Shown here: positions 777 through 63,526 of the stretch, piece by piece
How positions within the stretch are numbered: the stretch's first letter is position 1
Layout: each line of letters opens with the position of its first letter
Position numbers and translations under genes: made by a program
Assembly: GCA_002361595.1 (NCBI GenBank)
Contig: DETJ01000039.1
Coordinates: 960-64,959 of the forward strand
Reading direction: 5' to 3'
Origin: Patescibacteria group bacterium UBA3291
GTDB taxonomy: Bacteria; Patescibacteriota; Gracilibacteria; Absconditabacterales; Absconditicoccaceae
Length of the DNA: 64,000 nucleotides
The notes under the pieces: generated by a model
The model's database searches: none
What the model saw: only the letters and a program-made list of their open reading frames with translations
Told to the model about the DNA's origin: nothing

Positions 777-866
777 TGGCGGAGGGGGTGGGATTCGAAC
801 CCACGAACCGAATACTCGGTTAACAGTTTTCAAGACTGCCGCGTTCAACCGCTCTGCCACCCCTCC
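777..866 (-). tRNA. tRNA-Ser, anticodon UGA (reads UCN), long variable arm, CCA encoded
   Basis: The reverse complement reads GGAGGGGTGGCAGAGCGGTTGAACGCGGCAGTCTTGAAAACTGTTAACCGAGTATTCGGTTCGTGGGTTCGAATCCCACCCCCTCCGCCA. The acceptor stem is 7 bp. The anticodon loop is CTTGAAA. There is a long extra arm and a GGTTCGAATCC T-loop. Confidence 0.9.
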
Positions 867-8519: not shown

Positions 8520-9731
8520 TTAATTCCTTGGACTTCCTCATCGTTCCACTACTGTGAATCCTGTTCTTTCAGGAGTAGATAGTTGCTGCTCTGGAATATC
8601 AATTGGTTCATCAATAGCTTTCCAATCCATCATTACTCTGATTACTGTATCAGGTGTTGGTGTAATATTTAGTGGCATATTTTCATCTTGCTCTGCTTTA
8701 GTTTCGAATCTAATTAAATTCCATTCATTACCTTCCATCTGAGGAAGCCAGTAAACTATAAATTCTTCTGCTTCTCTTTCATTTAGTCATAGAATTGCAA
8801 GTTTTTCTTCCAAAAATGGGATTGTATCTTCTCATTTTACCACAAATCATTCATCAAAATTATCTTCTGCATACGTTTTTCATTCTCGATATAAAGCATA
8901 GAGTTTTCTTCATGTATCTATATCTTCTAAATCTCCATTTGGTTGTGCTATCACATTTCGTCATCTTTCAGAGTTATATTTTGGATATGTATGTGATAGG
9001 TTTTGTGGACTTCAAAGTTCTACATGAATTTTAGTTTCTGTAGTTGGATAGAGATAAATTATAGGTTTATCTAACATCATTCCTCCAGGATTGGTTCAAC
9101 AAGCCTGCCTACACGATTCATACGCTTTTAATTCATCTTGATATCAATCAAACATTTCATCAATCCACTCATTATAATATGGATTACTTGCTAAACTACC
9201 ATCAGAGCCAAAACTAAAAGTATAACAATTAAATCAGTTGTATCTTTCTTTACACCAATGATCATAATCCTCTTCTGCATAATAAAATTTTAATTCCTCT
9301 CAAATATCTGGCATTTCACAGCTATTTAAACAATCTTTTCGTTTTGGTATTTTACATTTTGAAATGCATCAATTTCAACACATATATCAAAATGGTTCAT
9401 CCTCATGTTTTTCACATTCTTTATAACACTTATTTGAACAATTCGGATCTCTTCGATCATAGTTTCAAGAATCTGAAATTCAAAAATCTATATTTACAGA
9501 AGTTCATGGACACAAAAACTCAACATCAAAATAATTAGGAATAATTCATGCTTTCGTTAATCATGCTCGTACTCATCATATAGCCCATATAAAAGCAAAA
9601 AACATCAAAAAAACCCTCAAGAAATTTTTTCATTTACTAGGCTCCTTAATTAATATCTGTGGAGCACTTTCTACTGAAGCATTTTCTACTGGAGCACTTT
9701 CTGTTGGAATATTTTCTATAATTTCATCCAT
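8520..9731 (-). CDS. Membrane-anchored Cys-rich extracytoplasmic protein of unknown function
   Basis: MDEIIENIPTES... leads into a TM segment (FLRVFLMFFAFIWAIGGV). A Cys-rich region follows (CSNKCYKECEKH..CGNGCISKCKIP..C). Then comes a conserved-looking domain: KPIIYLYPTTETKIHVEL ... FIVYWLPQMEGNEWNLIRF ... TGFTVVE-CGA-GG. The start is 33 nt after the stop of the upstream ATPase gene. Confidence 0.65.
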
Positions 9732-9763
9732 TTTATCAAAAATTATTTAATAAAATTAGCTTT

Positions 9764-12700
9764 TTAAGATTCTTCTCATCATTCTGTTTGTGATTCTGCT
9801 GATGTAGAATTATCTGGTAAATCATTTTCTTCTATTGAAAGTCCAAGTCTTGCCCTAGTTTCAGCATCTACGAATTCTCTTCTTCTTCCATATTTCTTAG
9901 CTGAATATTCCTTCAGAATTGGCACAATTTTCTTATTCTGGTAATCTTTTGTATAAATTGAGTTCATACTAAATACACGTGTAGTAGCATTATCGATATT
10001 TAGTTTGATGTATGATTTATAGTTTGCTATTCATACAATATCCTGTCCAGACAAAACTGGAGAATATTCTTTTTCTAGGAATTCGGCATCTGGTGCACCG
10101 ACTTTGAATGACATCATCGTACCAACGTTACCAAATACGGCAGCTTTTACGTCAGATTTTCATCCTCATGAATCTCCAAGTCATTTAGCAGGATCAAGCT
10201 GTGCGATATACTGGTGTGCCATAATCAATCCAAGTCTATATTTTCTGGCCTCTGATAAGATATCAGCAAACGTTCATGATACGAAGTTCTGGAATTCATC
10301 GACGTAAAGATAGAAATCTTTTCTATCCTTCTCAGGAATTGAAGCTCTAGCCATCGCAGCATTGTAAACTTTAGATACAATAATCATACCTAGAAGCTGA
10401 GCATTCATTTCTCAGATTTTACCTTTTGAAAGATTAATAAGGAGAATCTTCTGATTATTCATAATATCATCAAATTTGAACGCTGATTTTGTTTGTCAGA
10501 TAATATTTCTGATAAGTCTGTTTGTATTAAATGATACGAATTTAGAAGAGAAATATGGAATAATCTCCTGTTTTTCTCTATCTCACATCGCATTATAAGT
10601 TTTTTCCCACCAGTTCTTTACGACTGCGTTGGTTACTTTCTTTAGTTTAAATTCACGATATCCATCATCTGTAAAGAGTCTAGTTACATCAAGTAATGTT
10701 GGTCTATCTTCAAAATCCTCAAGTAAAGTCAAACTTCCATATTTAAAATATTCCTGAATTCTTGGTCAGAATATTTCTGGTCCAAACATTTTCAAGAAAA
10801 TCTCTGTAGCATCGTTTACCGTTCTATCCGCCTGATCTAGATTGTCAATTTCATAAAGATTAAGTCACATTGGCCTCTCTTCATCTCATGCCTCGAAATA
10901 TACTACATCTTTCGCTCTTTCCTTTGGAATATAAGCAAGCATATCTTCTGCTAAATCTCCATGTGGATCGATAAGACAGATTCCATCACCATTCCAGATA
11001 TCCTGTCTAGCAATAGTTTGCAAAAATACTGATTTTCAGGTACCTGATTTTCATATACAATAATGATGTCTAGTTCTATCATCACGTTTGATATATACTG
11101 GAGAATAAACATTTCTATAAATATTTACTCATAGAAGAACTCATCATTTATAGATTTTATATCATTTAACTACTTTTTCTTTTGGTATATTCAAAGATAT
11201 TTTTCCATCTTCTCATACTACGATATTATTCTTTGCTAAATCTTTTTCTGAACACTCTGAAATTGGTTTCAAAATATTCTCTTTTTTTACAAATTTTATC
11301 GCTATATTTCCATCCTTTTCTACGATATTATTTTTTGATTTTTCTTCTTCTGAACATTCTATAATTGGTTTCAAATTTTCTCATTTTTCATCCATTTTCA
11401 TATATATAATTTCATCTTTCTCTATTATATTATGTTCTGATATTTCTTTTTCTGAACATTCTGAAAGAATTTTTATAGTTTCCTCCTCTTGTGTAACTTC
11501 AACAAAAATTGAACCACCTTTTTCTACGATATTATGATTCTTTTTATCTTTTGAACTACATTCTTCTAATGGTTTTAGATTTTCAGATTGTTCTATTCTT
11601 GTTCATACTGCCCAATGGTTTGGATATTCATCCAAAATCGCTGACAGATTTCATTTCTTGTATTTTTCTGCTAATATTCATGATATTACACGACCATTTC
11701 GTCCACTATCATCAAACATTGGTAAATTACTTGGAGGTGCTATAACTTTATATTGCATCCATTCAATAGCTGGTGAACGGTTATATAATCCATCTGGGAA
11801 ATGGTACAATGAACATAATTCATTAGTTGAAAAATATGAATATCTAGAGAAGAATCATGTTAAATACATTTGTACAGCGGCTCTCCATAATGGAATATAG
11901 AAGGCTCCAAAAATATCGTGTTTAAAATTTGATGATCAGAGAGCATTACTATATTCATCACTATAAACGTTATATGCACTTTCTAGATTATTTAATATTT
12001 CTTTTGCTCTTCATTTTACATTACTAGATGCAATTATTGAAATTGTAGAACGGAATGTTGGATTGGCTGCTTCTTCTCACATAGCATTTCTACTATCTTC
12101 CTTTGCTTTTACCATACGAACCATTGTTACATCTTTTTCTTCTTTTTTATTAGAAACCAATTGATTTCTTGGTCAGAAGATAGCATATTCAATCCATTTG
12201 AATGGATTAATCAGATTTTTGAAACTCCATCGTTGTGATTCATATAGATCAAGATTTTTGTATAATCTGTCTGCTGCAATTTCTCTACGAGAATTGAAAC
12301 TTGAATTTTCTGGTTTAGCTACTAAAACAATACTAACTGTATCTTCTGCGCTTACCTTACCCATTGAATCTATAATATTATTGATTGGATCGTCTGGAAT
12401 ATTTTTGTAAAGTTTGATAGTATATAATGGATCTTTTGTAGTTTCAAGGACCTGAATATCCGAATATTTTTTCTTGAAAAATTTTGGTCTAGCTACAGTT
12501 TCGATGGAAGCTGCAGAATACTGTGATGCTATCGCACTTTCTACCATATCCTGATATTCTGGATATGTTCACACCAAACAAGAAAGCTGTCCATCTTCGT
12601 ACTGGTATATGAAAACTAATTTATGCTTTCAAAAAACTTTTCACATAAACTTTTCATATGTACTTATTTCATTCATTTTGTGCAAATTTCATAGAACCTG

Positions 12701-13261
12701 TGACATTCTACCAATTTTTTCTTTCATATCTTTTGCAATTTCTTTTTCCTGTTCACGATCAGTTTTTCCATCTCATCTTGGTAAAAGTATTTTTAGAAAT
12801 ATAAGTCTTTGTGAATTACAAAATGCATATGCATATCTGAGAAATCTTTTTCAAACTCTAATAAATAAACTTACCAAAAATAATATAAACAAAAATACTA
12901 ATATTCATTTTCATATTAATCATAAGAGATTCAAAATTTGTTCTGGACTCTCAATATTATTAAAATCTACTGCTTCTACAGATGCCTGGAATCGATTTTT
13001 ACCAGATTCTTTTTGGTTTGTTTCAGGTTCTTTTGGTTGGATTTGTTCTTCTTCTTTTTCCATCCATATATTCAAAGTATCCTTTACTGCAACTACACTA
13101 CCATTATTAAAAAAAGATAAACATGCCGATTTATCATCTCATCGTGAGTCATTCATAAGTTTAGAAACATTATCTATTTGAGAAAAACCACCATGAATAA
13201 ACTGGTTGTGAAGTGCTGTTGTACAATTTTCTTGATTAATTTCCATTAATGGTTGGTCCAT
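9764..13261 (-). CDS. VirD4/TraG/TraD-like P-loop ATPase (type IV secretion coupling-protein type) with a large N-terminal membrane-anchored extension
   Basis: Walker A is HHYCIGKSGTGKS and Walker B is FYLYVDEFQNF. ARKYRLGLIMAHQYIAQL is typical of the TraD/TraG C-terminal ATPase domain. The N-terminal roughly 560 aa contain a TM helix (GILVFLFILFLVSLFI) and LKILLPRGDGKTD. I translated all 1165 codons and found only TGA interruptions. Confidence 0.7.
11180..11585 (-). repeat. Four tandem in-frame repeats of about 96-100 nt inside the ATPase gene
   Basis: The encoded units are ENLKPLEECSSKDKKNHNIVEKGGSIFVEV, ETIKILSECSEKEISEHNIIEKDEIIYMKM, ENLKPIIECSEEEKSKNNIVEKDGNIAIKFV and ENILKPISECSEKDLAKNNIVVGEDGKISLNI. 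Confidence 0.8.
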
Positions 13262-13349
13262 AGTTAATAAATTCCACTCTAATTATAATCCAAAATACAA
13301 AAAAAGTCAAAAAAAATCAGACTTTTTGATGGTAGAAAAATTTTATTAA

Positions 13350-13377
13350 TTGACTTTTTATGCTGTTTATATATAAT
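13350..13377 (+). promoter_or_regulatory. Sigma70-like promoter upstream of thyA
   Basis: TTGACT, a 16-nt spacer, then TATAAT, in AT-rich DNA immediately before the GC-rich CDS. Confidence 0.5.
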
Positions 13378-13431
13378 TCCTGCTAATTAAACAAAAACTG
13401 ATTGTCAAACAATAATAAAATTTTTAAATTT

Positions 13432-14226
13432 ATGAAACAGTATTTAGATTTATTACGAAGGATTATGTCCGAAGGTACGGACAAATCTGATCGTACTGGT
13501 ACAGGTACAAGGAGTATTTTTGGACACCAGATGAGATTTGATTTATCTGAAGGATTTCCTCTTCTGACCACAAAAAAGGTTCATCTGAAGTCTATTATCT
13601 ACGAGCTCTTGTGGTTTATTGCTGGCGACACAAATGTGAAATACTTGCAAGACCATGGTGTAACTATTTGGAACGAATGGGCTGATGAAGACGGAGATCT
13701 TGGTCCTGTATACGGCCATCAGTGGCGCAGTTGGCCAGCTCCAGATGGAAGATCTATTGATCAGCTATCCCAAGTTATCGAGACAATCAAGAAGAATCCT
13801 GACTCTCGACGTATGCTTGTAACCGCATGGAATCCTGGCGAAGTAGATGATATGGCTTTACCGCCGTGTCACTGTCTCTTCCAATTCTATGTAGCTAATG
13901 GAAGATTGTCCTGTCAGCTTTATCAACGCAGTGCTGATACATTCCTGGGCGTTCCGTTCAACATTGCATCTTACGCACTCCTAACGATGATGATTGCACA
14001 AGTATGTGGCTATGAACCTGGTGAATTTATTCACACGACAGGAGATACTCACATCTATCTCAACCACTTCGAGCAGGTTGCTACCCAGCTCTCTCGGGAA
14101 CCTCGTCCTCTTCCTCATATGAAGATCAATACAGATGTGAAGTCTATCTTCGACTTCAAGTATGAAGATTTCACTCTGGAGGGATATGATCCTTGGCCGG
14201 CAATCAAAGCACCTGTATCTGTGTAA
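13432..14226 (+). CDS. thyA: Thymidylate synthase (ThyA type)
   Basis: [12 protein letters not shown]...DRTGTGT...LWFIAGDTN...[13 protein letters not shown]...[12 protein letters not shown]...[11 protein letters not shown]...[21 protein letters not shown]. It is intact in the standard code. The track start (TTG at 13402) is replaced by the ATG at 13432. Confidence 0.95.
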
Positions 14227-14251
14227 CTTATCTTACTTTTTTTAGAAAAAA

Positions 14252-14283
14252 CCGTAGGAAGAATCTCTCCTACGGCTTTTTTA
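14252..14283 (+). terminator. Rho-independent terminator of thyA
   Basis: Perfect 8-bp stem CCGTAGGA/TCCTACGG followed by CTTTTTTA. Confidence 0.8.
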
Positions 14284-14295
14284 TTTCAAGAATTT

Positions 14296-14913
14296 TTATG
14301 CAACAGTTAGTCAGAATTTTATATTTCCATTTTCACTTTCAAATGTATCACAGCGTGTGTCTGAGTCTGTACTACCTTCTGAAATATCGATAATCAATGC
14401 TTCTTCTTTTAAAAATTCTGAGAATTCTTTTACGATATTTTTCATATCTTCACTATCTGACTGATAGTGCATATTTACTCTAGCATCTACTGAAAAATCA
14501 GCATCTTTTCTCATTTGATTGAGAAATCTGGAGATTTCACGAGCTGTTCATTCTCTTTTGAGGTCATCTGTGATTTCTAGATCTAATTTTACAATTGTAT
14601 TTCATTCAACTGTAGTATCAGTTCCATCCAATCATTCGTAAACTACTTCGTAGTCAGATTCTTCCAATTTCCATGTATGTCATGCGTTATCAAAAACTTC
14701 AATTCAACCATCCACTTCACGAACGTTTCACTGTTTTCAGTTTGCGATAATTTGTCATGTATCTTTTCCAAATTTAGCAGAAAGCTGACCTCATAGAGGT
14801 TTATATATTTTGGTAATTGGTTTATCTGACTGATAAATGTCTACTTCCTTCACATTGATTTCTTCCTTGATAATATCTCAATATTTGTCTAAAAGCTCTT
14901 TTTCGTTAAGCAT
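14296..14913 (-). CDS. Stand-alone protein resembling the C-terminal module of type-2 isoleucyl-tRNA synthetase (DUF5915-like)
   Basis: IKEEINVKEVDIY...KPITKIYKPLGGQLSAKFGKDTGQI ... VKLDLEITDDLKREGTAREISRFLNQMRKDADFSVDARV matches the IleRS tail pattern (LD..LT.EL..EGLARE..R.IQ..RK.AG..V.DRI). No synthetase body lies upstream. Confidence 0.6.
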
Positions 14914-24196: not shown

Positions 24197-24796
24197 TTAC
24201 TCAGTCTTTTCTTCTTTTTGAACAAAAAATTTTTTTGGATTTTTCTCCTTATGAACTGTAGGACTATCAATCTTTTCTATGATAGCATCCAAAACTTTAT
24301 CTACATTCTGACCAGTTTTTCACGAAACACAAATAATTTCATCAGCTGGAATTCAGATTACATGTTCAATTTCTGCTGCTACTCTAGCAGGATTTGCAGC
24401 TGGAAGATCAATTTTATTCAAAACTGGAATAATTTCTAATCACTGATCAATTGCCTGATAAAGTGTTGATAAAGTCTGAGCCTGAATTCACTGACTTGCA
24501 TCTACTAGTAAAATTGCTCACTCTACTGCAGCAAGTGAACGAGAAACCTCATACTGAAAATCTACATGACCTGGAGTATCTATCAGATTTAATTCATATC
24601 ATTTCCACTGCATTCTAGCAGGAGTAAGTTTGATAGTAATTCATCTTTCCTGCTCAATGTCCATTCTGTCCAAAACCTGACTATGTTCTAGTTTTCTCAC
24701 TGTTCACGTAATTTCTAGCATTCTATCTGCTAGAGTAGATTTTCCATGATCAATATGTGCTATTATACAAAAATTACGAATATGTTCTGTAGACAT
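24197..24796 (-). CDS. lepA: LepA/EF-4 N-terminal GTPase domain only (truncated; possibly a remnant)
   Basis: [45 protein letters not shown] and LNKIDLP are present. Similarity ends after IDSP, and the ORF stops 20 codons later. Domains II-V are absent. Confidence 0.75.
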
Positions 24797-24825
24797 ATTT
24801 TATCTCAAAAATATATTTTAAATAA

Positions 24826-25113
24826 CTATTTTGCTTCTACTCCTAATCCTTTTATAACGAGGAATACTACCAATGCTACTACTATAAAATCAATAGCTCT
24901 AGCAAGTAATTTTCCATAAAGAACTCATTTCCATGAAAGATTTTCCAATTTATCAATCTTTAATTTCTTTAAAATTGGAGCAAAAATAAGTGGAGTAATA
25001 AAATCTTCAATGAAAGATTTAGTTAATTCTCCAACTTTAGTTGCAATTAAAAGTCAGATAGCAACTCAGATTACATTATAAGTTGCAATAAAATCCATAA
25101 ATTCTGCTCGCAT
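24826..25113 (-). CDS. mscL: Large-conductance mechanosensitive channel-like protein
   Basis: MRAEFMDFIATYNVIGVAIGLLIATKVGELTKSFIEDFITPLI... followed by a second TM segment; 95 aa. Confidence 0.65.
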
Positions 25114-25198
25114 ATTTATATTATATAAAAATATAAAAGGTACTTTTCTTATAGAAATATATTATTATTTTTCAATATTATTTAATTTTATTTAAATC

Positions 25199-25226
25199 TT
25201 GACTATATTATACTTTTCATTATATA
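25199..25226 (+). promoter_or_regulatory. Sigma70-like promoter
   Basis: TTGACT, a 16-nt spacer, then TATATA. Confidence 0.45.
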
Positions 25227-25232
25227 TATTAT

Positions 25233-25392
25233 GGCAAACGAATTTAGTGATATTAATATTTTTAAGTATTTGATGTAAATTTAGATTTATCGTGAGATAA
25301 TAGCTAAATTTGGATGTCGTGAGACATTTTTATGAATGATTAGATTTATATCTATCTATTTACTCGCATCGTATTCGGTGCGAGTTTTTTTT
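25233..25392 (+). ncRNA. Candidate small structured RNA, or a 15-codon micro-ORF plus structured tail, ending in a strong terminator
   Basis: Downstream of the promoter there are two hairpins with GUGA tetraloops (ttatc-gtga-gataa inside aaatttag/ctaaattt, and atgtc-gtga-gacat). A terminator follows: ACTCGCA/TGCGAGT plus T8 (25362..25392). ORF MANEFSDINIFKYLM lies at 25231..25278. Confidence 0.35.
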
Positions 25393-25626
25393 ACTTTTTT
25401 TTAACATTTTAACATCAGAAAATTTTCTGATTTTTTATTTTTCACAAAAATTTTAACATTTTTACATTATTTAACATTCTGATTTTTTATAAATTTTCTA
25501 TATTATAACTTTGTTTTTTTTTAATTTATCAATTATTTAACATTTTTACATTATTACTATCAATTATTTTTTTTAATTTATTTGTAATATAATAAGAAGA
25601 AATTTTTTCGAATAAAATGTTGAAAA

Positions 25627-26097
25627 ATGAAAAACAAATCATATAAGAAAATTGTAATATTTTTTTATATATTTACAATATTTTTTATGAAAGATAAAAT
25701 CAAAAGGAGTATAGTGATAACTATATTTGGATTATTTCTATTATATTTGATTTGGTTGATATCTCAATGAACTATGATAGTACAGAATCAATATGCAGGT
25801 CGAAATATTCCAATGTATATAATTTTGATAGCTATTTGTTTATATATGGTTTGTTTATATTGAATATATCCAATTCATGTAAAATTTTCTAGAGCTACAG
25901 CATTAGTAATTTGATTATTATTTATAGTTTTGTCTCAAGTAGTATTGGCTAATGATGGATATTCTCATATATATATTTGAGATATGTTTTCAGTTTTAGG
26001 TGTTTTAATATTGATATTATTTCCTACTAATATTTTGACTACAGATAAGGTAAAAAAACAAAAAGCCAAAAAAAATGAGGTTATTATTGAAGTTTAA
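25627..26097 (+). CDS. Hypothetical small membrane protein
   Basis: 156 codons, four hydrophobic segments, Lys-rich C-terminus. Confidence 0.5.
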
Positions 26098-26179
26098 TTT
26101 TGTTAATATAAAAAAATGTGAAGTGATGCTTAAATATTTCAATATAAATCAGACTTTTTAATTATTATTTTGTAAAAAA

Positions 26180-26509
26180 ATGGCAGAAGCTAATAATATT
26201 ATAGAAATTACATCAAAAGATCAATTTGAAGAAGCTGTAAAATCTGAAACTTTAACAATAGTAGATTTTTGGGCTGTATGGTGTGGACCATGTAGAGTTT
26301 TAAAACCATTATTACACAAAATAGCTGGTGAACATCCAGAAATTCAATTATTAACTGTAGATGTAGATGTTAATCAGGAATTGGCTGCTCAATATGATAT
26401 TAATTCAATTCCAGCTGTATTTATGTTTAAAAATGGTGAAATAGTTGATAATTTCGTTGGAGTTATGCCTGAAAATGAAATTTTAGAGAAAATTGAAGCT
26501 AATAAATAA
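26180..26509 (+). CDS. trxA: Thioredoxin
   Basis: DFWAVWCGPCRVLKPLL active site; 109 aa; intact in the standard code. Confidence 0.95.
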   Translation: MAEANNIIEITSKDQFEEAVKSETLTIVDFWAVWCGPCRVLKPLLHKIAGEHPEIQLLTVDVDVNQELAAQYDINSIPAVFMFKNGEIVDNFVGVMPENEILEKIEANK

Positions 26510-26535
26510 ATTTATTTAGATTTTAAGTAAAAAAT

Positions 26536-26566
26536 AAGACTAACTTTGAATAGTTAGTCTTTTTAT
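26536..26566 (+). terminator. Rho-independent terminator, possibly bidirectional with the convergent FemAB gene
   Basis: 10-bp stem AAGACTAACT/AGTTAGTCTT followed by TTTT. Confidence 0.75.
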
Positions 26567-26576
26567 TAGTTATAAA

Positions 26577-27781: not shown

Positions 27782-29209
27782 ATGACATTTAAAGATCGAT
27801 GGAGAAATTATAAAAGTATTGGAATATTTTGTGTGATTTTTTTAGTATTTTTAATAATTTTTATAATTTGGAATATTTTATGAAAAAATGAAAATAAAAT
27901 TCAGACTGAGGAACGAGTAAATATTTCAGATTTTCCTACTACTCTGGAGATAGATAAAGAATGAAAATTATTATCATATCCAGAAGTAATGGTTTTAGCT
28001 GAAACTGACTGAAAAATAATGAATATGAATGTGACACAGTGAGATATAGTTGAAGAGCGAGATATTTTAATGCAGATATGAGAAGAAGATTGAATAGATG
28101 AAAATACTGATATAGATACAAGAATTGGAAGAAAATTTGCTGAATATTATCAAATGAAAAATGAATATAAACAGTTTGAATCGGATTTTTGAGAAGAAAT
28201 CTCAGTTTTAGAAGATAAATTGAGAGATTATAATGTTGAATTTAGTATAGCTGTGGATATGTGAGATGAAAAAACTACGGAAATTATGTCTGAAAAAATT
28301 GAAGATGTAGAAAATGAATTAAATTTATTAAAAGATAGGAAAATTTATTTAAAATCTGAAGTTAATAGATTAGAAAATGAAATAATGTTAGAAAATTTGG
28401 ATAATATAGAATATTTGTATGAATTAGATAAAAAATCTCCTAGAGCTTCGATTCAGTGAATAGTTTCAGAGATTTATGTACAGCAGTGAGATGAAGTAAA
28501 AAATTGAAATAAATTATTAAAAATTATAGACAATACATATAGTCCAGAAATAGCAGTTTGATTAAGTTTTAATGAATATGTACTTACACAGGATTTGACA
28601 TGAGTTTTAATCGTAACTGAAAATGAAAATCGATGAGATTCATATTATGAATGAGAGATATATACTCGTAGTCCAAAAATTAATGAAGACTGAGAATATA
28701 CACTCACGGTTAGAATATTAGAAGAAGTTTCAGATTTGATTTTGAATGATAAGAATACAAAAATTACTGTAATTTTTACCAAAGATTATCCAACGATTTG
28801 GATTCCAAAAAATTGTTTCACAGAAATATGAAAAAATAGTTGAAAACTAACTTTACGTGATGGTGATATAATGAAAATAAAAGAAATCTGAATAAAAAAT
28901 AAATGGAATAATTGGATAAATGTCGATAATTTAGCATTATTTTGACTTGAAAATGAAGAAGAAAAAGATGGAATGAATTTATGTGTTGAAGATTGGAATA
29001 AAATCATAAAAAATTGGGATAATGATCCAACATTACATGAGGATGAATCTTTAATTGAATGGCGTAACCAATTTGATAATGTAGAAGATTTATGTAAAGA
29101 ATTCATAAAAGTAAATCCAATGTACAGGAGTGGTCATAGAAATGCATCTATAATATCGTTATTATGATGAAGTGGTGAAAAAATTGAAGTATTATGTAGA
29201 TTAGAATAA
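27782..29209 (+). CDS. HlyD/membrane-fusion-protein-like periplasmic adaptor
   Basis: An N-terminal TM segment is followed by a long coiled-coil segment. There is a lipoyl-like hairpin (GIVSEIYVQQGDEVKNGNKLLKI) and a beta-barrel-like C-terminus. Confidence 0.5.
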
Positions 29210-29229
29210 TTTATTATTTATCTAAAAAT

Positions 29230-29811
29230 ATGGAAAGAAAAGATTATTTAGTTCTAGTGAATAAACAAAATAAACTTCCAGATAATTGGGAAGAAATATC
29301 TGAGCTTGTAGAAGTGAAAAATAGTTTTGGAAAATTTCTAAAAATAGAGAAAGAAACATTGGAAAAATTTAATGAACTAAGAAGAGTTTTATTGGCTGAA
29401 TGAGTAGATATTGAGCTTGATAGTGCATATCGTTCTTTTTCTATTCAGAATGAATTTTTTGAAAAATTTAAAGAAGAATATGGAGAAGAATATGCAAGTA
29501 ATTATGCTGCACCTGCAGGTTATTCTGAACATCATACATGATTAGCAATTGATATATGTATCAAAAAAGAAAACTGAGAAATTATTTCAGAAAATCATGA
29601 AATGATAGTTGAGTTATGAGTTTTTGATAGAGTTCATAAAAAAATGGTAGATTATTGATTTATAGTTAGATATCCTGATGGAAAAGATAGTATTACATGA
29701 TATAGTTATGAACCTCGACATTTAAGATATATATGAGATGCTGATATAGCCAAAGAAATTATGGAAAATTGATTAACTTTAGAGGAATATTTGAATAAAA
29801 CTTGAAAATAA
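29230..29811 (+). CDS. VanY-type D-alanyl-D-alanine carboxypeptidase (peptidase M15B), cytoplasmic-looking copy
   Basis: LVLVNKQNKLPDNW, SAYRS, YSEHHTGLAIDI, GFIVRYPDGKDSITGYSYEP-CGA-HLRYIG. Confidence 0.85.
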
Positions 29812-29847
29812 ATATTTAAGTTAATGTTTTAAATTTTGTTATAGATT

Positions 29848-30585
29848 ATGAAAAAATCATTATTATTAAGTTTTGTTTTATTATCAGGAGTATTAATGGT
29901 TGCGTGTGAAAATAAAACTGATCAAAATTTAGAAGATACTCAGACTTGTTCTTTATGAGAATCAGTATGTGATCTTACGTGAACTAGTATTAATTCAAAT
30001 GAAAATCAGACTGGTATAGATTATTTAGTTTTGGTAAATAAAGAGAATAAATTACCAGATGACTGGGAATCTAAGCTAGAATTAGTAGAAGTACAAAATG
30101 CTTATGGTGAAACAATCAGAGTAGAAAAAGAAGCTTTGGAAAAATATAATGAACTAAAAGCTGATTTAGCGAAAGAATGAATAGAAATAGAACTGGATAG
30201 TGTATATCGTTCAGTAGAGAAACAACAGCAAGTGTGGGATGAATTTGAACAGGAATATGGACTCGAATATACTCAGAAATATGTAGCAGTTCCATGATAT
30301 TCAGAGCATCATACAGCTTTGGCTCTAGATATAGTTATTAGAAAAGATGGAGTGTTAATTTATGAGAATGATGATATGATAGCTGAGCCTGAGATATTTG
30401 CAAAGATTCATGCTAAATTAGCAGATTATGGATTTATACTTAGATATTTGGAATGAAAAGAAGATATTACATGATATGGATATGAACCTCGACATTTGAG
30501 ATATATATGAGATGCTGATATAGCCAAAGAAATAATGGAAAATTGATTAACTTTAGAAGAATATTTGAATAAAACTTGAAAATAA
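29848..30585 (+). CDS. VanY-type D-alanyl-D-alanine carboxypeptidase, lipoprotein paralog
   Basis: MKKSLLLSFVLLSGVLMVAC lipobox, then the same M15B motifs. The last 100 nt or so are nearly identical to the upstream copy. Confidence 0.85.
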
Positions 30586-30631
30586 TTATTAATTAAATTA
30601 TGTATTTTTATCTTTTTATAAAATATAAATT

Positions 30632-31255
30632 ATGAAAAAAACATTATTAGTAAGTTTGGTCCTATTATCAGGAATTATATTGACTGCATGTGGACAGGAT
30701 AATCAAACAGATGATACAACTAAAAATCTACCTTTGACAGATTGTCAGAAAGCTGTAAATAAATATTTGGAATGAGCTGATAAGAGTGGAAAATGAGATG
30801 AAGTAAAAAAATGAGATAATATAGTAGTAGATTATATATGACGTTTGGATGATGGAAGTGTATTTGATACAAGTATAAAATCAATAGCTGAAGAATGTGG
30901 AGTATATAATGAGAATAGAAATTATACTGAGTGATTATCTTTCCAAGCACAAGCTGGACAAATGGTAAAATGATTTGATGATGGAGTAATCTGAATGAAA
31001 GTTTGACAGACAAAGACAGTTCAGTTTTGACCAGAGGAATGATATGGACAATATGATAAAAGTTTGGTAGTTACGGCTCCAATATCAGACTTTGGAGATG
31101 TTAGTCAGTTCTCGGAATGAGATACTGTTTATTTATGAATGGGATATCCTGCTAAAATTATTAAAATTACAGATAAAGAAATAACATTAGATATGAATCA
31201 TGAATTAGCAGGTAAAGATTTGATATTTGATATAACTATTAAATCGATTAATTAA
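30632..31255 (+). CDS. FKBP-type peptidyl-prolyl isomerase, lipoprotein
   Basis: [10 protein letters not shown] lipobox; [17 protein letters not shown]; AGQMVKGFDDGVIGMKVGQTK; [17 protein letters not shown]. Confidence 0.85.
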
Positions 31256-31278
31256 TTTAGTTTGTATATTTGAAAAAT

Positions 31279-31797
31279 ATGGAAATTCAAAAATCTGTAC
31301 AAGAATATTTAGATTGAGCTGATAAAAATTGAGCTTGAGAGACTGTAAAAATCGGAGATAATATAACAGTTGACTATATTTGACGTTTAGAAGATGGGAC
31401 AGTATTTGATACAAGTGTAGAATCAGTAGCTAAAGCATGCTGAAAATATAATGAAGCTAGAGATTATACTGAGTGATTAACTTTTGGGGTGTGAGCTGGA
31501 CAGATGATTAAATGATTCGACGAATGAGTAGTAGGTATGAAAGTATGACAAACAAAGACAGTTCAATTTGGACCAGAAAAATGATATGGACAGCGTAGAG
31601 AAGATTATATCATGACTTATTCTGCTGAAGAAGTATGAGATTTGAGTAAATTTACTGAATGACAAAGAGTTTATCTATGAATATGAGCTGCAGCATTGAT
31701 TACGAAAGTGACAGATAAAGAATTGACTATAGATTTAAATCATGAATTAGCAGGTAAAGATTTGATATTTGATATAACTATTAAATCGATTAATTAA
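31279..31797 (+). CDS. FKBP-type peptidyl-prolyl isomerase, paralog without signal peptide
   Basis: [17 protein letters not shown]; GAGQMIKGFDEGVVGMKVGQTK. The last 60 nt are identical to the upstream paralog. Confidence 0.85.
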
Positions 31798-60041: not shown

Positions 60042-60562
60042 ATTTATGATTCGAATTATATCTTTGATTTTATACAAAGTTTAACTATTTTCAATAAATA
60101 GATAATAATACATTGATTTAGATAAATAATTCTGTATGTTACGGATGTCATAAAAAAAGAAAAAAGATTCGGGAATCATATCGGACATATTTGGGGTAGC
60201 TATCAATGGTGCATCGATTGGATAGTATACCGAGTTAGAGCGGGGTAGGTCGAAGAATTCATTTCTACTTTATGACAAAACAGGGGTAAAACAAAAAATT
60301 AAACAAAATTACGTGAAGATACAGAAAAACTATGAACGGTGTACTTCACAAGATGGTCAATTGGGTTAATTCTAGATTAACCAAATAATTAATAATAGAT
60401 TAGTACGAGATGAATTGGGTTAGTAGGTTCTTAAAAACTTGTGAATAGATATTTATATATTCACTAACTCCTATATAACGGACATATCCAGGTGCGATCA
60501 TTATTGATTATCACTAAAGAACTAAAAAAGGAAGAATTGGATTGAGATATAATTTTTTAACG

Positions 60563-63526
60563 ATGGAAAGATTCATCGATGTTTTTGGATTGAAAAAAAG
60601 TAAAAAGTTGCCTGATGATGAATTATATGTAATGCTAATGCTTCAGAGAGCAAGCGAAGGAAGCGAGCCAGCAAAGGCAGACTGTGAAGATCCAATGATC
60701 AAAGCAGCATGTCTATTAGACTCAGACAAATGTCCAGCTGAATGTAAAGGTTCAGATGAAAAAGAAGACAACACAGTTGTTAAATCTGGAGACTTAGCTG
60801 TAACAGCTAAAGCTGCTGAAGGTAGAAAAGCTCTAATCGGATGAGTATCTGACTTAGACACTATCACTTTCAAGACATCTGAAGATGTAACTATATCTAG
60901 CATTACTCTTGAGAGATATGGATACTCTACAATTGATGATGTTGAAACAGTTCAATTAGAAGATGAAGATGGAAACATCATAGCTGATGCTAAAGAACCT
61001 AATTCTAAAGGTCAAGTTAAATTGACTCTTAAGAAAGATTACAAGACAGTTGATGGAACTTTCAAAGCAACTGTTGTTGTAAAAGTTAGAGAATTAGGAA
61101 AAGATATATCAGCAGAAACTGGAAATCCAGATGCTTATGCAGATGATGTTAATCCTAATGGTGCAAATACATATGCTGGATTAAAGAATGGATCAACATT
61201 AGGATTCAAAGTTATAGCTGCTGAATCTACAGCTAAAAACTTAAATCTTGATGATTACTCTCCATACACTTACGATTTAGTTAACTATGCTGGATCTAAA
61301 GTTCAATTCTCTACTAGAAACTCTGCAGAAAAAACTTATAATTTTGAAGCAGGAAAACTTTACGAAGTAGTTAAATTTAGAGTAAAAGCTCCTAGTGATG
61401 CTGCTATCTTGATTAAAGGATTTACTTTAACTGAAGATGACAACAACCTTGAAGCTGATAAATACGCTAAAGAAGTAACAGTTACAGTTAATGGAAAAGA
61501 AGTTAAAGGATTAAAATGGAATATTAACAAAGATGATGAATTAGTTGTTTCTTTCGATGAAATAGAAGTTGCTGGAAAAGAAACTGCTACAATAGCTGTT
61601 AATATGTCATTCAACGAAGAATTCGATAATTTCGGAAAAGCTTCTACATATTACATCAGCAAGCTTTCTAATTTTAATGCAATTGACAAAAAAACTGAAT
61701 CAAGAGTTTCTCAAGCTGATGGTTATACTATTGAAGGTATTCAAAAGCACGCAGCAAACTGATGGACTACATATATCTTCAATGGAGGAAAAATTAAAAT
61801 TGCTGGAACTAAATTAGGAACTGTTAATGCTGCTGCTGGTGCTTCTAATGTAAAAGTAGCTGAAGGTAATATTACAATTACAGAACCTCTTAGAGGATCT
61901 GCTCGAGTTAAAGTTAAGAGTAACGCAGCTGCTATAGATGAAATCAGATTAGTAATCGATGGTGAAGAATATGATGGATCTAAAGGAGCAGATGGTGTAT
62001 ATACTTTCAAATGACTTGAAATCGAAAAGTCAGGAAAAGTTGAATTAAGAGTTGATGTTAAATCTGAAGTTGATGGAGAACCTGCTGAATGAACAATAGA
62101 ATTCGCAGCTTCATTAAATAGTAACTCATTCTTCCCTGCAAATGCAACTGAAGCACAACTTGCTGATCGTGATAACAGTTTATTAAAATATGACGAATCA
62201 GGTAAGAAAGTTGCATATGATGAAGTATCTGGATCTCTTAGTATATCTAGCATAAAGATCCAAGCTGCTAGAGCTTCTCTTGATAACAAGAACACTAAAG
62301 AAGTTGAACTTGTTAAAGATGAAAACAACAGAAAAATTATTTTCGAAGGTACTTATACTGCAAAGAAAGGTGCTGTAACTCTTAAAAACTTTGTTATTAC
62401 AAAGGCTAGCGGTACAGCTGTTGATGGAAAACCTACATTCTATGTAACTATTGATAAAGAAGAATACGATGCTAACTGGAGTGTAAATGATGCTGAAGCA
62501 AAATGAGATATCGATGATATCGAAGTTGCTGATGGAAAATCAGTAAGTGTAGTAGTTGAAATTGAAGCTACTCCAACTGAAGGTAGTGCTGTATATAATA
62601 TCGAATTGTCATGAGAAGATGAAGACAACAATCCAGCTGGAAAAGCAGATGAAGATACAGCAAAAGTTAAAGTTGTAGAGCAAGGAACTCTTGAAATAAC
62701 AGATGCATCTGCTAAAAAGACAGTTCTTCTTAAATCTGACAGAACAGTTGCTAAATTCAGAATTAAACCATCTAAATCTGGAGGTGATGATATAATTCTT
62801 AAGAGTATGTGATTCACTTTAACAGATGAAGAAGGTGGTGATGGAACATGGGGAGATCTTTATAATAATTTGAAAGTTGATATAGATGGTGATACTTACA
62901 CAAAAGGTGGTCAACTAGAGATTGAAGAATCTAATCTAACTAACGGAGAAGCTATGATTAAACCAGATGTAAAAGTTCCTTCTGCATGATTAGTAGTAAC
63001 AGTTACTCTTAAATCTGAATTAGAAGTAACTAATGAAACTCCAGATGAAACATTCAAGAGATATTTCACTCTTGAAGAAGTTAACACAAATACTAATGTT
63101 GCAACAACATTCAGTAAATATTGGGTACCTGCTATTATAAAGAATCTTAAACAAGAAAAGAGTGGAGATACTACTAGATACACATTTGATATGGAAAATG
63201 ATGGATCTGATTCAGTATCTAACATGAAGTTCTATACTAATATTGAAAATGATGCTGATAAATGTGTTCCTACTGAAACTTTAGCAGAATCAAATACAAT
63301 AGAAGGAGCAGATGCTACTACACATTGTAACATAGTTTCACATAAAGACTCTGTATCATCTACTGATAACAAGATGTCTGCTATAAATGGAAATAAAGCT
63401 ACAAGTGTTGTTGCTATCTCTTATGAAGTTGGAGATCAAACAGTTATTATTAAGAAATCTGAATTCGAAGACTTCTTCGATTTAGGAAAAGATGACTTAA
63501 TGGTTTACTCTAATAGTAACAACTAG
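60563..63526 (+). CDS. Putative S-layer or other abundant surface protein
   Basis: 987 codons in one frame (track ORFs 60542, 61022 and 63191 agree). It shows strong codon bias, a beta-rich K/E/T/V/A/N composition, few TGA codons, a long upstream leader and a strong terminator. No classical signal peptide is visible. An alternative TTG start lies at 60542. Confidence 0.5.

Follow-up and report, generated by a model that had tools for sequence, protein, structure and literature searches.

In xenologous gene displacement in situ, a foreign homologue takes the place of the resident gene without a change of locus, as in mosaic operons, and ambiguous decoding of a sense codon is exemplified by CUG in some yeasts. 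Altered genetic codes are thought to be a barrier to gene transfer. For the Absconditabacteria a reading of CGA and CGG as tryptophan has been predicted in addition to UGA as glycine (table 25); the authors noted that ambiguous decoding cannot be excluded without experiment and described no gene families departing from this code (PMC8629427). The thymidylate synthase gene thyA is among the genes which bacteria of the Candidate Phyla Radiation (CPR), or Patescibacteria, obtained from other members of their communities, with one case from groundwater (PMC12455944). Here we analyzed thyA in a stretch of 64,000 nucleotides from Patescibacteria group bacterium UBA3291 (contig DETJ01000039.1, positions 960 to 64,959), referred to as the window in the following. 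In the reading we favor, to which we assign a probability of roughly 0.6, the gene is a real and intact Bacteroidales thyA in a fixed slot of recurrent in-place replacement within a recoded host, and its spelling is still donor-like because the alleles are young.

The locus resembles xenologous displacement in that relatives share position, orientation, promoter, leader and terminator while their coding sequences come from unrelated subfamilies, and in that a remnant of an older copy is found at two loci (L122/L123). It differs in frequency, with at least three Bacteroidales-type imports, many deep alleles of a second type (type B) and two groups of a third (type C) in about 40 closely related loci, and in that the replacement crosses a genetic-code boundary without codon adaptation. 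The flanking genes obey the Absconditabacteria code exactly (PMC8629427), whereas the thyA family inside these genomes does not. Unlike at the window locus, neither a conflict of codes nor a conserved slot nor recurring replacement is seen in the groundwater case (PMC12455944). In the literature we found no description of an essential gene entering one slot repeatedly across a double code boundary, of misread codons retained under purifying selection, or of an adapted control allele in a neighboring lineage. The slot thus offers a natural counter-example, with many replicates, to the barrier idea: the gene of an essential enzyme has passed several times into a doubly recoded lineage from bacteria with the standard code, and it remains under purifying selection while keeping codons that the host should misread. 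It also permits a direct test of whether CGA and CGG are read only as Trp in Absconditabacteria, so far a prediction from sequence, and it bears on the tolerance of an essential enzyme to mistranslation and on the speed at which imports adapt, an adapted thyA-folA operon serving as a built-in control.

The thyA coding sequence lies at 13432..14226 on the plus strand and consists of 264 codons followed by TAA. The range 13350-14283 singled out in the original prediction comprises this coding sequence together with promoter and terminator. We considered membership in the ThyA family (PF00303, EC 2.1.1.45). PF00303 is on record for a protein identical to the window ThyA, and the product is a full-length match to E. 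coli thymidylate synthase (TS) chains, residues 1-264 aligning to 1-264 without a gap (E about 1e-128), so that E. coli residue numbering can be used. In the standard reading the catalytic Cys146 (PPCH), R21, R166, the DSRR motif and the C-terminal ...KAPV(S/A)V are all present. The gene differs from its recipient in composition and codon usage, as expected for a horizontally acquired gene. Its GC content is 0.436, compared to a mean of 0.287 for the 30 other genes of the window (sd 0.032, range 0.218-0.338, z=4.7), and its GC content at third codon positions (GC3) is 0.392, compared to 0.180 +/- 0.040 (range 0.093-0.261, z=5.3), with an abrupt compositional step at both borders. Its 18 Gly codons are GGA (7), GGT (6) and GGC (5) and never TGA; with TGA making up 739 of the 1403 Gly codons outside thyA, the probability of finding none among 18 is 1.4e-6. 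Reading the 64-kb window with table 11 yielded just six open reading frames (ORFs) of at least 170 aa, the longest of which, and the sole complete gene, is thyA. These counts agree with what had been proposed from the letters alone, except that the Gly codons had been put at about 20.

Three codons of the gene would be misread by the host. The original prediction had named two of them, the CGA of codon 126 (13807..13809) and the CGG of codon 222 (14095..14097); we found a further CGA at codon 9 (13456..13458). Codon 9 is a variable site, being AGA in sister lineage L095 and AAC in L104. Codon 126 encodes the first Arg of DSRR, a pair that binds the phosphate of deoxyuridine monophosphate (dUMP) in the partner subunit; Arg is invariant at this position across 74 standard-code genomes, and all four lineages sharing the allele have CGA or CGG there. 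Codon 222 encodes an invariant Arg in LSREPRP, and the sister lineages carry CGC, CGA and CGT, a variation that looks like four-fold synonymous drift in the standard-code sense. An adapted spelling in relatives, which had been suggested as a sign that the acquisition is not recent, is thus present at codon 9 (AGA) and codon 222 (CGC/CGT) and absent at codon 126. Among the arginines contacting the dUMP phosphate (R21, R126', R127' and R166), R126 is the one written as CGA and hence Trp in the host reading, while R21 (CGT), R127 (CGT), R166 (CGC) and likewise C146 (TGT) have unambiguous codons. The host would accordingly make an enzyme with three Arg to Trp exchanges, W9, W126 and W222.

The recipient's own code was determined from the surrounding genes. 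The GC content of the window is about 30%, and when TGA is read as sense, long genes fill it, including one ORF of 7494 codons. In-frame TGA occurred at Gly positions 739 times in 19312 codons, consistent with a table 25-type code. For comparison at the codon level we gathered 80 related loci using the neighboring DUF5915 gene as anchor and aligned host genes (TraG-like, RumA, DUF5915, PilD and others) codon by codon over about 40 of them. A homologue search with the protein encoded at 8520-9746 was confounded, as the protein collection renders TGA as W, and the codon-level alignments were used instead. Three independent lines show that the recipient reads CGA and CGG as Trp, the premise on which the original prediction had rested. 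First, in both VanY paralogues of the window the invariant Trp of the EPWH motif is encoded by CGA. Second, in the host-gene alignments the columns of CGA were shared with TGG in 30 of 42 cases and those of CGG in 7 of 10, and CGT, CGC and AGG were absent among their 12 commonest column partners (they are at most rare); in the same alignments the columns of TGA were shared with GGA, GGT and GGG, and those of AGA with AAA, AGG and AAG. Third, a tRNA with anticodon UCG is encoded in the close relatives L119 (16114-16186, minus strand) and L124 (8934-9006, minus strand), showing G1.U72, the discriminator G73 and U instead of A at position 20. By the rule of Shulgina and Eddy 2021, G1.U72, G73 and the lack of A20 are Trp-type identity features (PMC8629427). 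Overall, host genes make little use of CGA and CGG (61 of 19312 codons). The recipient is a lineage of rumen or gut type, and its code, known from Absconditabacteria only, suggests a placement in that group. The anticodon stem of the tRNA-UCG of L119 and L124 has just four Watson-Crick pairs and a U-C mismatch.

We assessed the origin and age of the window allele by comparison with its relatives. Four independent assemblies, one from ENA, two from JGI and one from Logan, encode an identical protein in identical gene order, the DNA being 100% identical in three and 99.9% in the fourth. Copies of thyA with about 87% DNA identity occupy the same place in other rumen-type contigs, and more diverged slot copies occur in many metagenome contigs. 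The window protein shares 86-89% aa identity with Bacteroidales ThyA (Alistipes sp. CAG:514, Cryptobacteroides and RUG/RGIG metagenome-assembled genomes, MAGs), which has the same length of 264 aa and aligns without gaps; the closest named relatives among the matches listed, Alistipes sp. CAG:514, rumen Bacteroidia MAGs and Cryptobacteroides, reach 86-87%. At the DNA level the identity to any sampled donor is only about 72%. Unlike Bacteroidales thyA, the window gene stands in a genome with TGA as Gly and CGA/CGG as Trp, behind a promoter of the recipient, and has a GC3 of 0.39 compared to 0.51-0.92 in donors; the range for the four resident lineages, the window (WIN), L095, L098 and L104, is 0.34-0.41. 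In the single Bacteroidales-type context that was inspected (L001), folA lies next to thyA, and it is absent beside the window gene. The top protein match (P0001, 335 aa) was discarded: it stems from a Bacteroidales-like thyA-DHFR contig and is an internally duplicated artefact of assembly.

In a distance-based neighbor-joining tree without support values, WIN, L095, L098 and L104 formed one clade, joined only by an uncharacterised metagenome protein (P0096), and resident alleles of this Bacteroidales-like type (type A) nested among Bacteroidales-type sequences. The type A alleles of two other loci, L116 and L122, were placed elsewhere among them, which argues for at least three independent Bacteroidales-type imports. 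Among the four lineages the ratio of nonsynonymous to synonymous divergence (dN/dS) of thyA is 0.05-0.11 with a dS of 0.43-1.6, and dS of the neighboring DUF5915 gene is 0.37-0.67. The gene is therefore foreign and of Bacteroidales ancestry, as the protein search and phylogeny proposed earlier for finding the donor lineage indicate. The allele probably entered once, before the four sampled lineages split, and has been kept as a protein-coding gene while losing part of its GC excess. A search of GenBank phages with the thyA DNA gave at most 68% identity, and in scans of IMG/VR the aa identity did not exceed 80% with type A, 38% with type B and 49% with type C. We rejected a phage or plasmid as vector, none having been found in these two sets.

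We then examined how the gene is embedded. To the left and divergent from thyA lies a gene for a VirD4/TraG/HerA-like ATPase (9764..13261, minus strand, 1165 aa) with 39 in-frame TGA and with CGA at Trp columns. To the right follows the convergent DUF5915 gene (14296..14913, minus strand, 205 aa), in which TGA accounts for 11 of 17 Gly codons. A sigma-70-type promoter-like site, TTGACT-16-TATAAT (13350..13377, plus strand), matches in 11 of 12 positions and is found upstream of alleles of types A, B and C; related loci keep the sequence GATTGACTTTTT...TATATAAT in this region. It is followed by an AT-rich leader (AAACAAAAACTGATTGTCAAACAATAATAAAATTTTTAAATTT; 13378..13431, plus strand) that extends up to the ATG as recipient sequence and is kept before unrelated thyA families. 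Downstream, a bidirectional intrinsic terminator (CCGTAGGA-loop-TCCTACGG; 14252..14283), with an A run before and a T run after it, is shared with the convergent DUF5915 gene. The hairpin proper, at 14252-14275 and followed by the T run, is kept after alleles of types A, B and C. Recipient sequence thus reaches the ATG on one side and comes within about 25 bases of the thyA stop codon on the other. As these elements are conserved around three unrelated thyA families, promoter, leader and terminator belong to the recipient locus and are not the property of thyA. The AT-rich consensus promoter and GC-rich terminator of the original prediction are indeed there, and only the idea that the terminator is the gene's own does not hold. 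Searching leader and terminator with Rfam gave just a sub-threshold match to the trpB motif over the terminator (30.6 bits compared to a gathering score of 59), which we treated as chance, and a known RNA element was rejected for both. The divergent intergenic region further contains a conserved inverted repeat, AAAAAGTC-N11-GACTTTTT (13301..13327), which overlaps the -35 element of a minus-strand promoter-like site of the VirD4/TraG-like gene and is present even where the slot is empty (L109). The DUF5915 gene is a stand-alone gene consisting of the DUF5915 domain alone, with 89-97% conservation in close relatives and about 57-65% in distant TGA-as-sense lineages. The domain presumably resembles the C-terminal part of isoleucyl-tRNA synthetase.

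Close relatives, in which the DUF5915 protein is 89-97% identical, have very different contents between the DUF5915 and TraG-like genes. The slot is occupied in a patchy manner by an allele of type A, B or C, or it is empty, as in L109. Type A is Bacteroidales-like, matches E. coli TS in the PDB and includes the further imports in L116 and L122/L123. Type B (331-344 aa) is of CPR type, has L. casei TS as its best solved relative and a Minisyncoccia MAG, at 60%, as its nearest named one. Type C (about 301 aa) is best matched by B. subtilis ThyA among solved structures. Unrelated homologues thus stand at one locus with conserved flanks, as xenologous displacement in situ predicts. Fresh imports can also be recognized: GC3 is 0.66 in L116 and 0.74 in L122/L123, where the protein is 95.8% identical to Bacteroidales-type metagenome proteins, and foreign flanking DNA is found in both cases. 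In L122/L123 about 48 codons of an older thyA stand directly behind the host leader, followed by a complete fresh allele and a foreign terminator, which looks like a replacement caught in the act, with a trace of the displaced copy. The universal 5' end of thyA, ATGAAACAGTAT, is common to donors and to alleles of types A and B and offers microhomology for recombination. Among type B alleles dS is saturated and dN reaches 0.25, compared to 0.02-0.09 for the flanking RumA, and their relationships do not follow those of the flanks, which argues that alleles turn over and move between lineages.

At three loci a gene for a dTMP-kinase-like protein of about 200 aa, free of TGA and with a GC3 of 0.39-0.54, lies inside the slot directly upstream of thyA (L113:11700-12386, L116:1524-2141 and L125:3722-4321, all minus in locus orientation). 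It seems to have been imported together with thyA as a two-gene thymidylate module. Nearly all TGA-free genes with at least 10 Gly codons in some 600 kb of related sequence are copies of thyA or of this adjacent gene, the exception being one lipoprotein-like ORF of 372 aa in L119.

The anomalous spelling extends beyond the window gene. We compared 35 thyA alleles from TGA-as-sense genomes, including type B copies that stand at other chromosomal sites of more distant lineages (L255 and L257, also L295 and L296). TGA was used for none of their 686 Gly codons, and their 79 CGA/CGG codons all fell into Arg or Lys columns. The anomaly is a property of the locus and of every thyA allele of the clade.

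In the favored explanation, recurrent replacement in the slot, a resident thyA would act as homology anchor for incoming foreign thyA DNA, so that only the coding sequence is swapped, and alleles might then spread between lineages via the conserved flanks. Repeated replacement would keep the alleles young relative to the genome and thereby retain the donor's codon spelling. Transcription would start from the recipient promoter and leader and end at the recipient terminator. Most likely, the W9/W126/W222 enzyme produced by host reading would be weakened but usable, or leaky decoding of CGA/CGG would supply some Arg. The dN/dS of 0.05-0.11 in the four lineages indicates strong purifying selection on this thyA and indirectly supports activity in converting dUMP to dTMP. 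In E. coli TS, R127 is highly substitutable, whereas R126, R21 and R166 accept few substitutions (PMC4304848). R127A is intermediate and R166Q nearly dead, and under limiting DHFR reduced folate is spared by weak TS alleles (PMC11026382). We did not find folA in the 64-kb window; given this folate-sparing effect, a weakened ThyA could be tolerated or even be useful.

Recurrent replacement explains most of the pattern, but it does not explain the lack of adaptation inside the slot, and several observations weigh against it. Using invariant Arg positions defined from standard-code ThyA sequences alone, we found 24 CGA/CGG codons, 132 other Arg codons and no other amino acid in resident alleles; donors have 20% CGA/CGG at the same positions. 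With CGA/CGG kept at invariant Arg sites and no other residue appearing there, selection seems to see these codons as Arg. Conversely, none of the 276 Trp codons of the thyA alleles is CGA or CGG. In 12 of 32 slot alleles TGA directly follows the normal C-terminus, and host reading would add 5-7 residues to five of them and 28-57 residues, through the terminator, to seven. Three groups of alleles (L097/L103/L108, L101/L111/L130 and WIN/L095/L098/L104) share the host leader and terminator and hence diverged inside the slot; at a dS of 0.4-1.2 they have gained no TGA Gly codon. In host genes of equal divergence 20-50% of conserved Gly sites pair GGA with TGA, and 7-22% of Trp sites pair TGG with CGA/CGG, from which about 2-9 TGA gains per thyA pair would be expected; none was seen. 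Changes from CGT or CGC to CGA or CGG at invariant Arg sites also arose within these groups, so that selection appears to act on the gene as read in the standard code. Young age alone does not fit such evolution inside the slot. Continual import would moreover need type B donors that use the standard code; among standard-code genomes we found no type B allele nearer than about 60%, and all inspected type B loci of at least 64% identity belong to TGA-as-sense genomes.

That thyA can be written in the host code is shown by L292 and L298/L299, in which a type B thyA is fully adapted: GC3 is 0.23-0.24, TGA makes up 12-13 of 23 Gly codons, the stop codon is TAA, CGA/CGG stand at conserved Trp positions, and Arg is encoded only as CGT, CGC or AGA. 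Given the 12-13 TGA Gly codons in L292/L298, we rejected the notion that thyA can never hold TGA. We also rejected high expression as the cause of TGA avoidance, as a surface-layer-like gene of the window (60518-63526, plus strand, 1002 aa) avoids TGA at a GC3 of 0.155, and as the idea leaves CGA/CGG at Arg positions unexplained. This presumably highly expressed gene uses TGA at 8 of 74 Gly codons and seems to avoid it. L298 and L299 represent a different rumen lineage from a sample series that also gave several slot loci; the thyA-folA operon in host code lies at L298:8001-9561 and L299:8001-9561, and a dCMP deaminase gene follows 3 kb downstream in L298. The same contig carries a Por_Secre_tail gene (L298:134-1447, plus strand) with a GC content of 0.47 and no TGA among 32 Gly codons, which looks like a second import, from Bacteroidetes.

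Ambiguous decoding of CGA and CGG as both Trp and Arg, already an option in the original prediction, would merely lower the yield of active ThyA, and the same codons would likewise be tolerated at host Trp sites. We consider this conceivable and on the whole unlikely. It is among the few ideas that explain why CGA and CGG act as Arg codons in thyA, where they fill 15% (24/156) of the invariant-Arg cells of resident alleles without another amino acid ever appearing, and where CGN third positions drift freely, codon 222 being CGG, CGC, CGA and CGT in four sisters. A few host CGA codons in Lys/Gln/Arg-like columns (TraG columns 9 and 103) and the rarity of CGA/CGG in host genes also speak for it. 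The tRNA-UCG of the two close relatives is, however, of Trp type and without A20, and host CGA occurs at the strictly conserved Trp of VanY. Ambiguity as for yeast CUG would explain a codon tolerated at sites of two residues; here the single tRNA observed has a Trp-specific appearance. In L292/L298 the adapted thyA has CGA/CGG at Trp and at none of its conserved Arg. Furthermore, ambiguous decoding of these two codons is silent on the missing TGA Gly codons and on the TGA stops. The authors of the reassignment left the possibility open (PMC8629427).

A wider formulation holds that selection keeps the slot thyA to the standard code, either through ambiguous or context-dependent decoding of CGA/CGG, together with the terminal TGA, or because the function is exercised in a standard-code cell. 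We regard it as rather unlikely.

A very recent transfer with too little time for adaptation was the leading option of the original prediction. The foreign origin stands: composition, absence of TGA and donor-like Arg codons all agree with it, and the gene nests among Bacteroidales-type sequences. The proposed recency does not, and we judge this account improbable. DNA identity to the closest donor sampled does not exceed about 72%, GC3 is down to 0.39, the allele is present in the same slot of four lineages at a dS of 0.43-1.6, and foreign flanking DNA, still visible at the truly fresh imports of L122/L123 (GC3 0.74) and L116 (GC3 0.66), is gone at the window thyA.

Alternatively, selection could take place in a standard-code setting, the gene being delivered to and expressed in a standard-code host or prey bacterium, or shuttling constantly through standard-code genomes. 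Genes written for the cell that expresses them are found in the T-DNA of Agrobacterium, where they suit the plant. This is the sole single idea covering the absence of TGA, the TGA stops, CGA/CGG at Arg and their absence at Trp, four signals which hold over three unrelated thyA families and through divergence inside the slot. The near confinement of TGA-free genes to thyA and the adjacent dTMP-kinase-like gene in about 600 kb fits as well, and the divergent neighbor is a VirD4/TraG-like coupling ATPase. Nevertheless we hold it to be quite improbable, as the sequence gives no sign of transfer, promoter and leader are the recipient's own AT-rich sequence, and no viral or plasmid shuttle was found in GenBank phages and IMG/VR. 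We know of no mechanism in bacteria by which a gene would be selected in another, standard-code cell, and a standard-code constraint inside the slot, if real, would need a mechanism not yet known. In addition, R21 and R166 are never CGA/CGG in the slot sample (0/56), compared to 16-23% in 74 standard-code genomes, a hint that may fit filtering under host reading. This depletion is no proof of host-code selection, since two alleles from outside the slot do have CGA, L296 at R21 and L255 at R166, and since the alleles are related to one another.

A non-functional relic, another option raised initially, is very improbable. Host reading would turn a substrate-binding Arg into Trp and extend many sister alleles past the terminator, folA is lacking nearby, and some relatives have an empty slot (L109). 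On the other hand dN/dS is 0.03-0.11, the frame is intact in all 35 alleles, though the AT-biased background would make stops quickly, and Cys146, R21 and R166 are kept as unambiguous codons. An assembly or binning chimera joining Bacteroidales reads to an AT-rich contig, suggested by the sharp composition step at both borders, is refuted, as identical junctions and gene order occur in four independent assemblies from different sources, homologous junctions recur in dozens of diverged contigs, and the nearest Bacteroidales DNA is just 72% identical.

Some further features of the window were recorded. The ORF of 7494 codons lies at 34184-56668 (plus strand), contains 230 in-frame TGA and encodes a giant protein. 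The VanY-type carboxypeptidase paralogues are arranged in tandem at 29200-29811 and 29845-30585 (plus strand) and have identical C-terminal tails, with CGA at the EPWH tryptophan in each. Adjoining them are tandem FKBP-type isomerase paralogues, again with identical tails, at 30629-31255 and 31261-31797 (plus strand). A tRNA-Ser with UGA anticodon is located at 777-866 (minus strand) within the stop-to-stop frame 1-926, so that the start of the real gene on that strand has to lie downstream of it; the CGA/CGG counted at 797-851 belong to the tRNA and are not coding. A region of about 1.8 kb at 24800-26570 has a GC content near 0.20 and contains no long ORF in any reading. The gene at 24197-24799 (minus strand, 199 aa) consists of just the GTP-binding domain of a LepA-like translation factor and is equally long in an independent assembly (L010), so that a truncated LepA may have been kept here as a gene.

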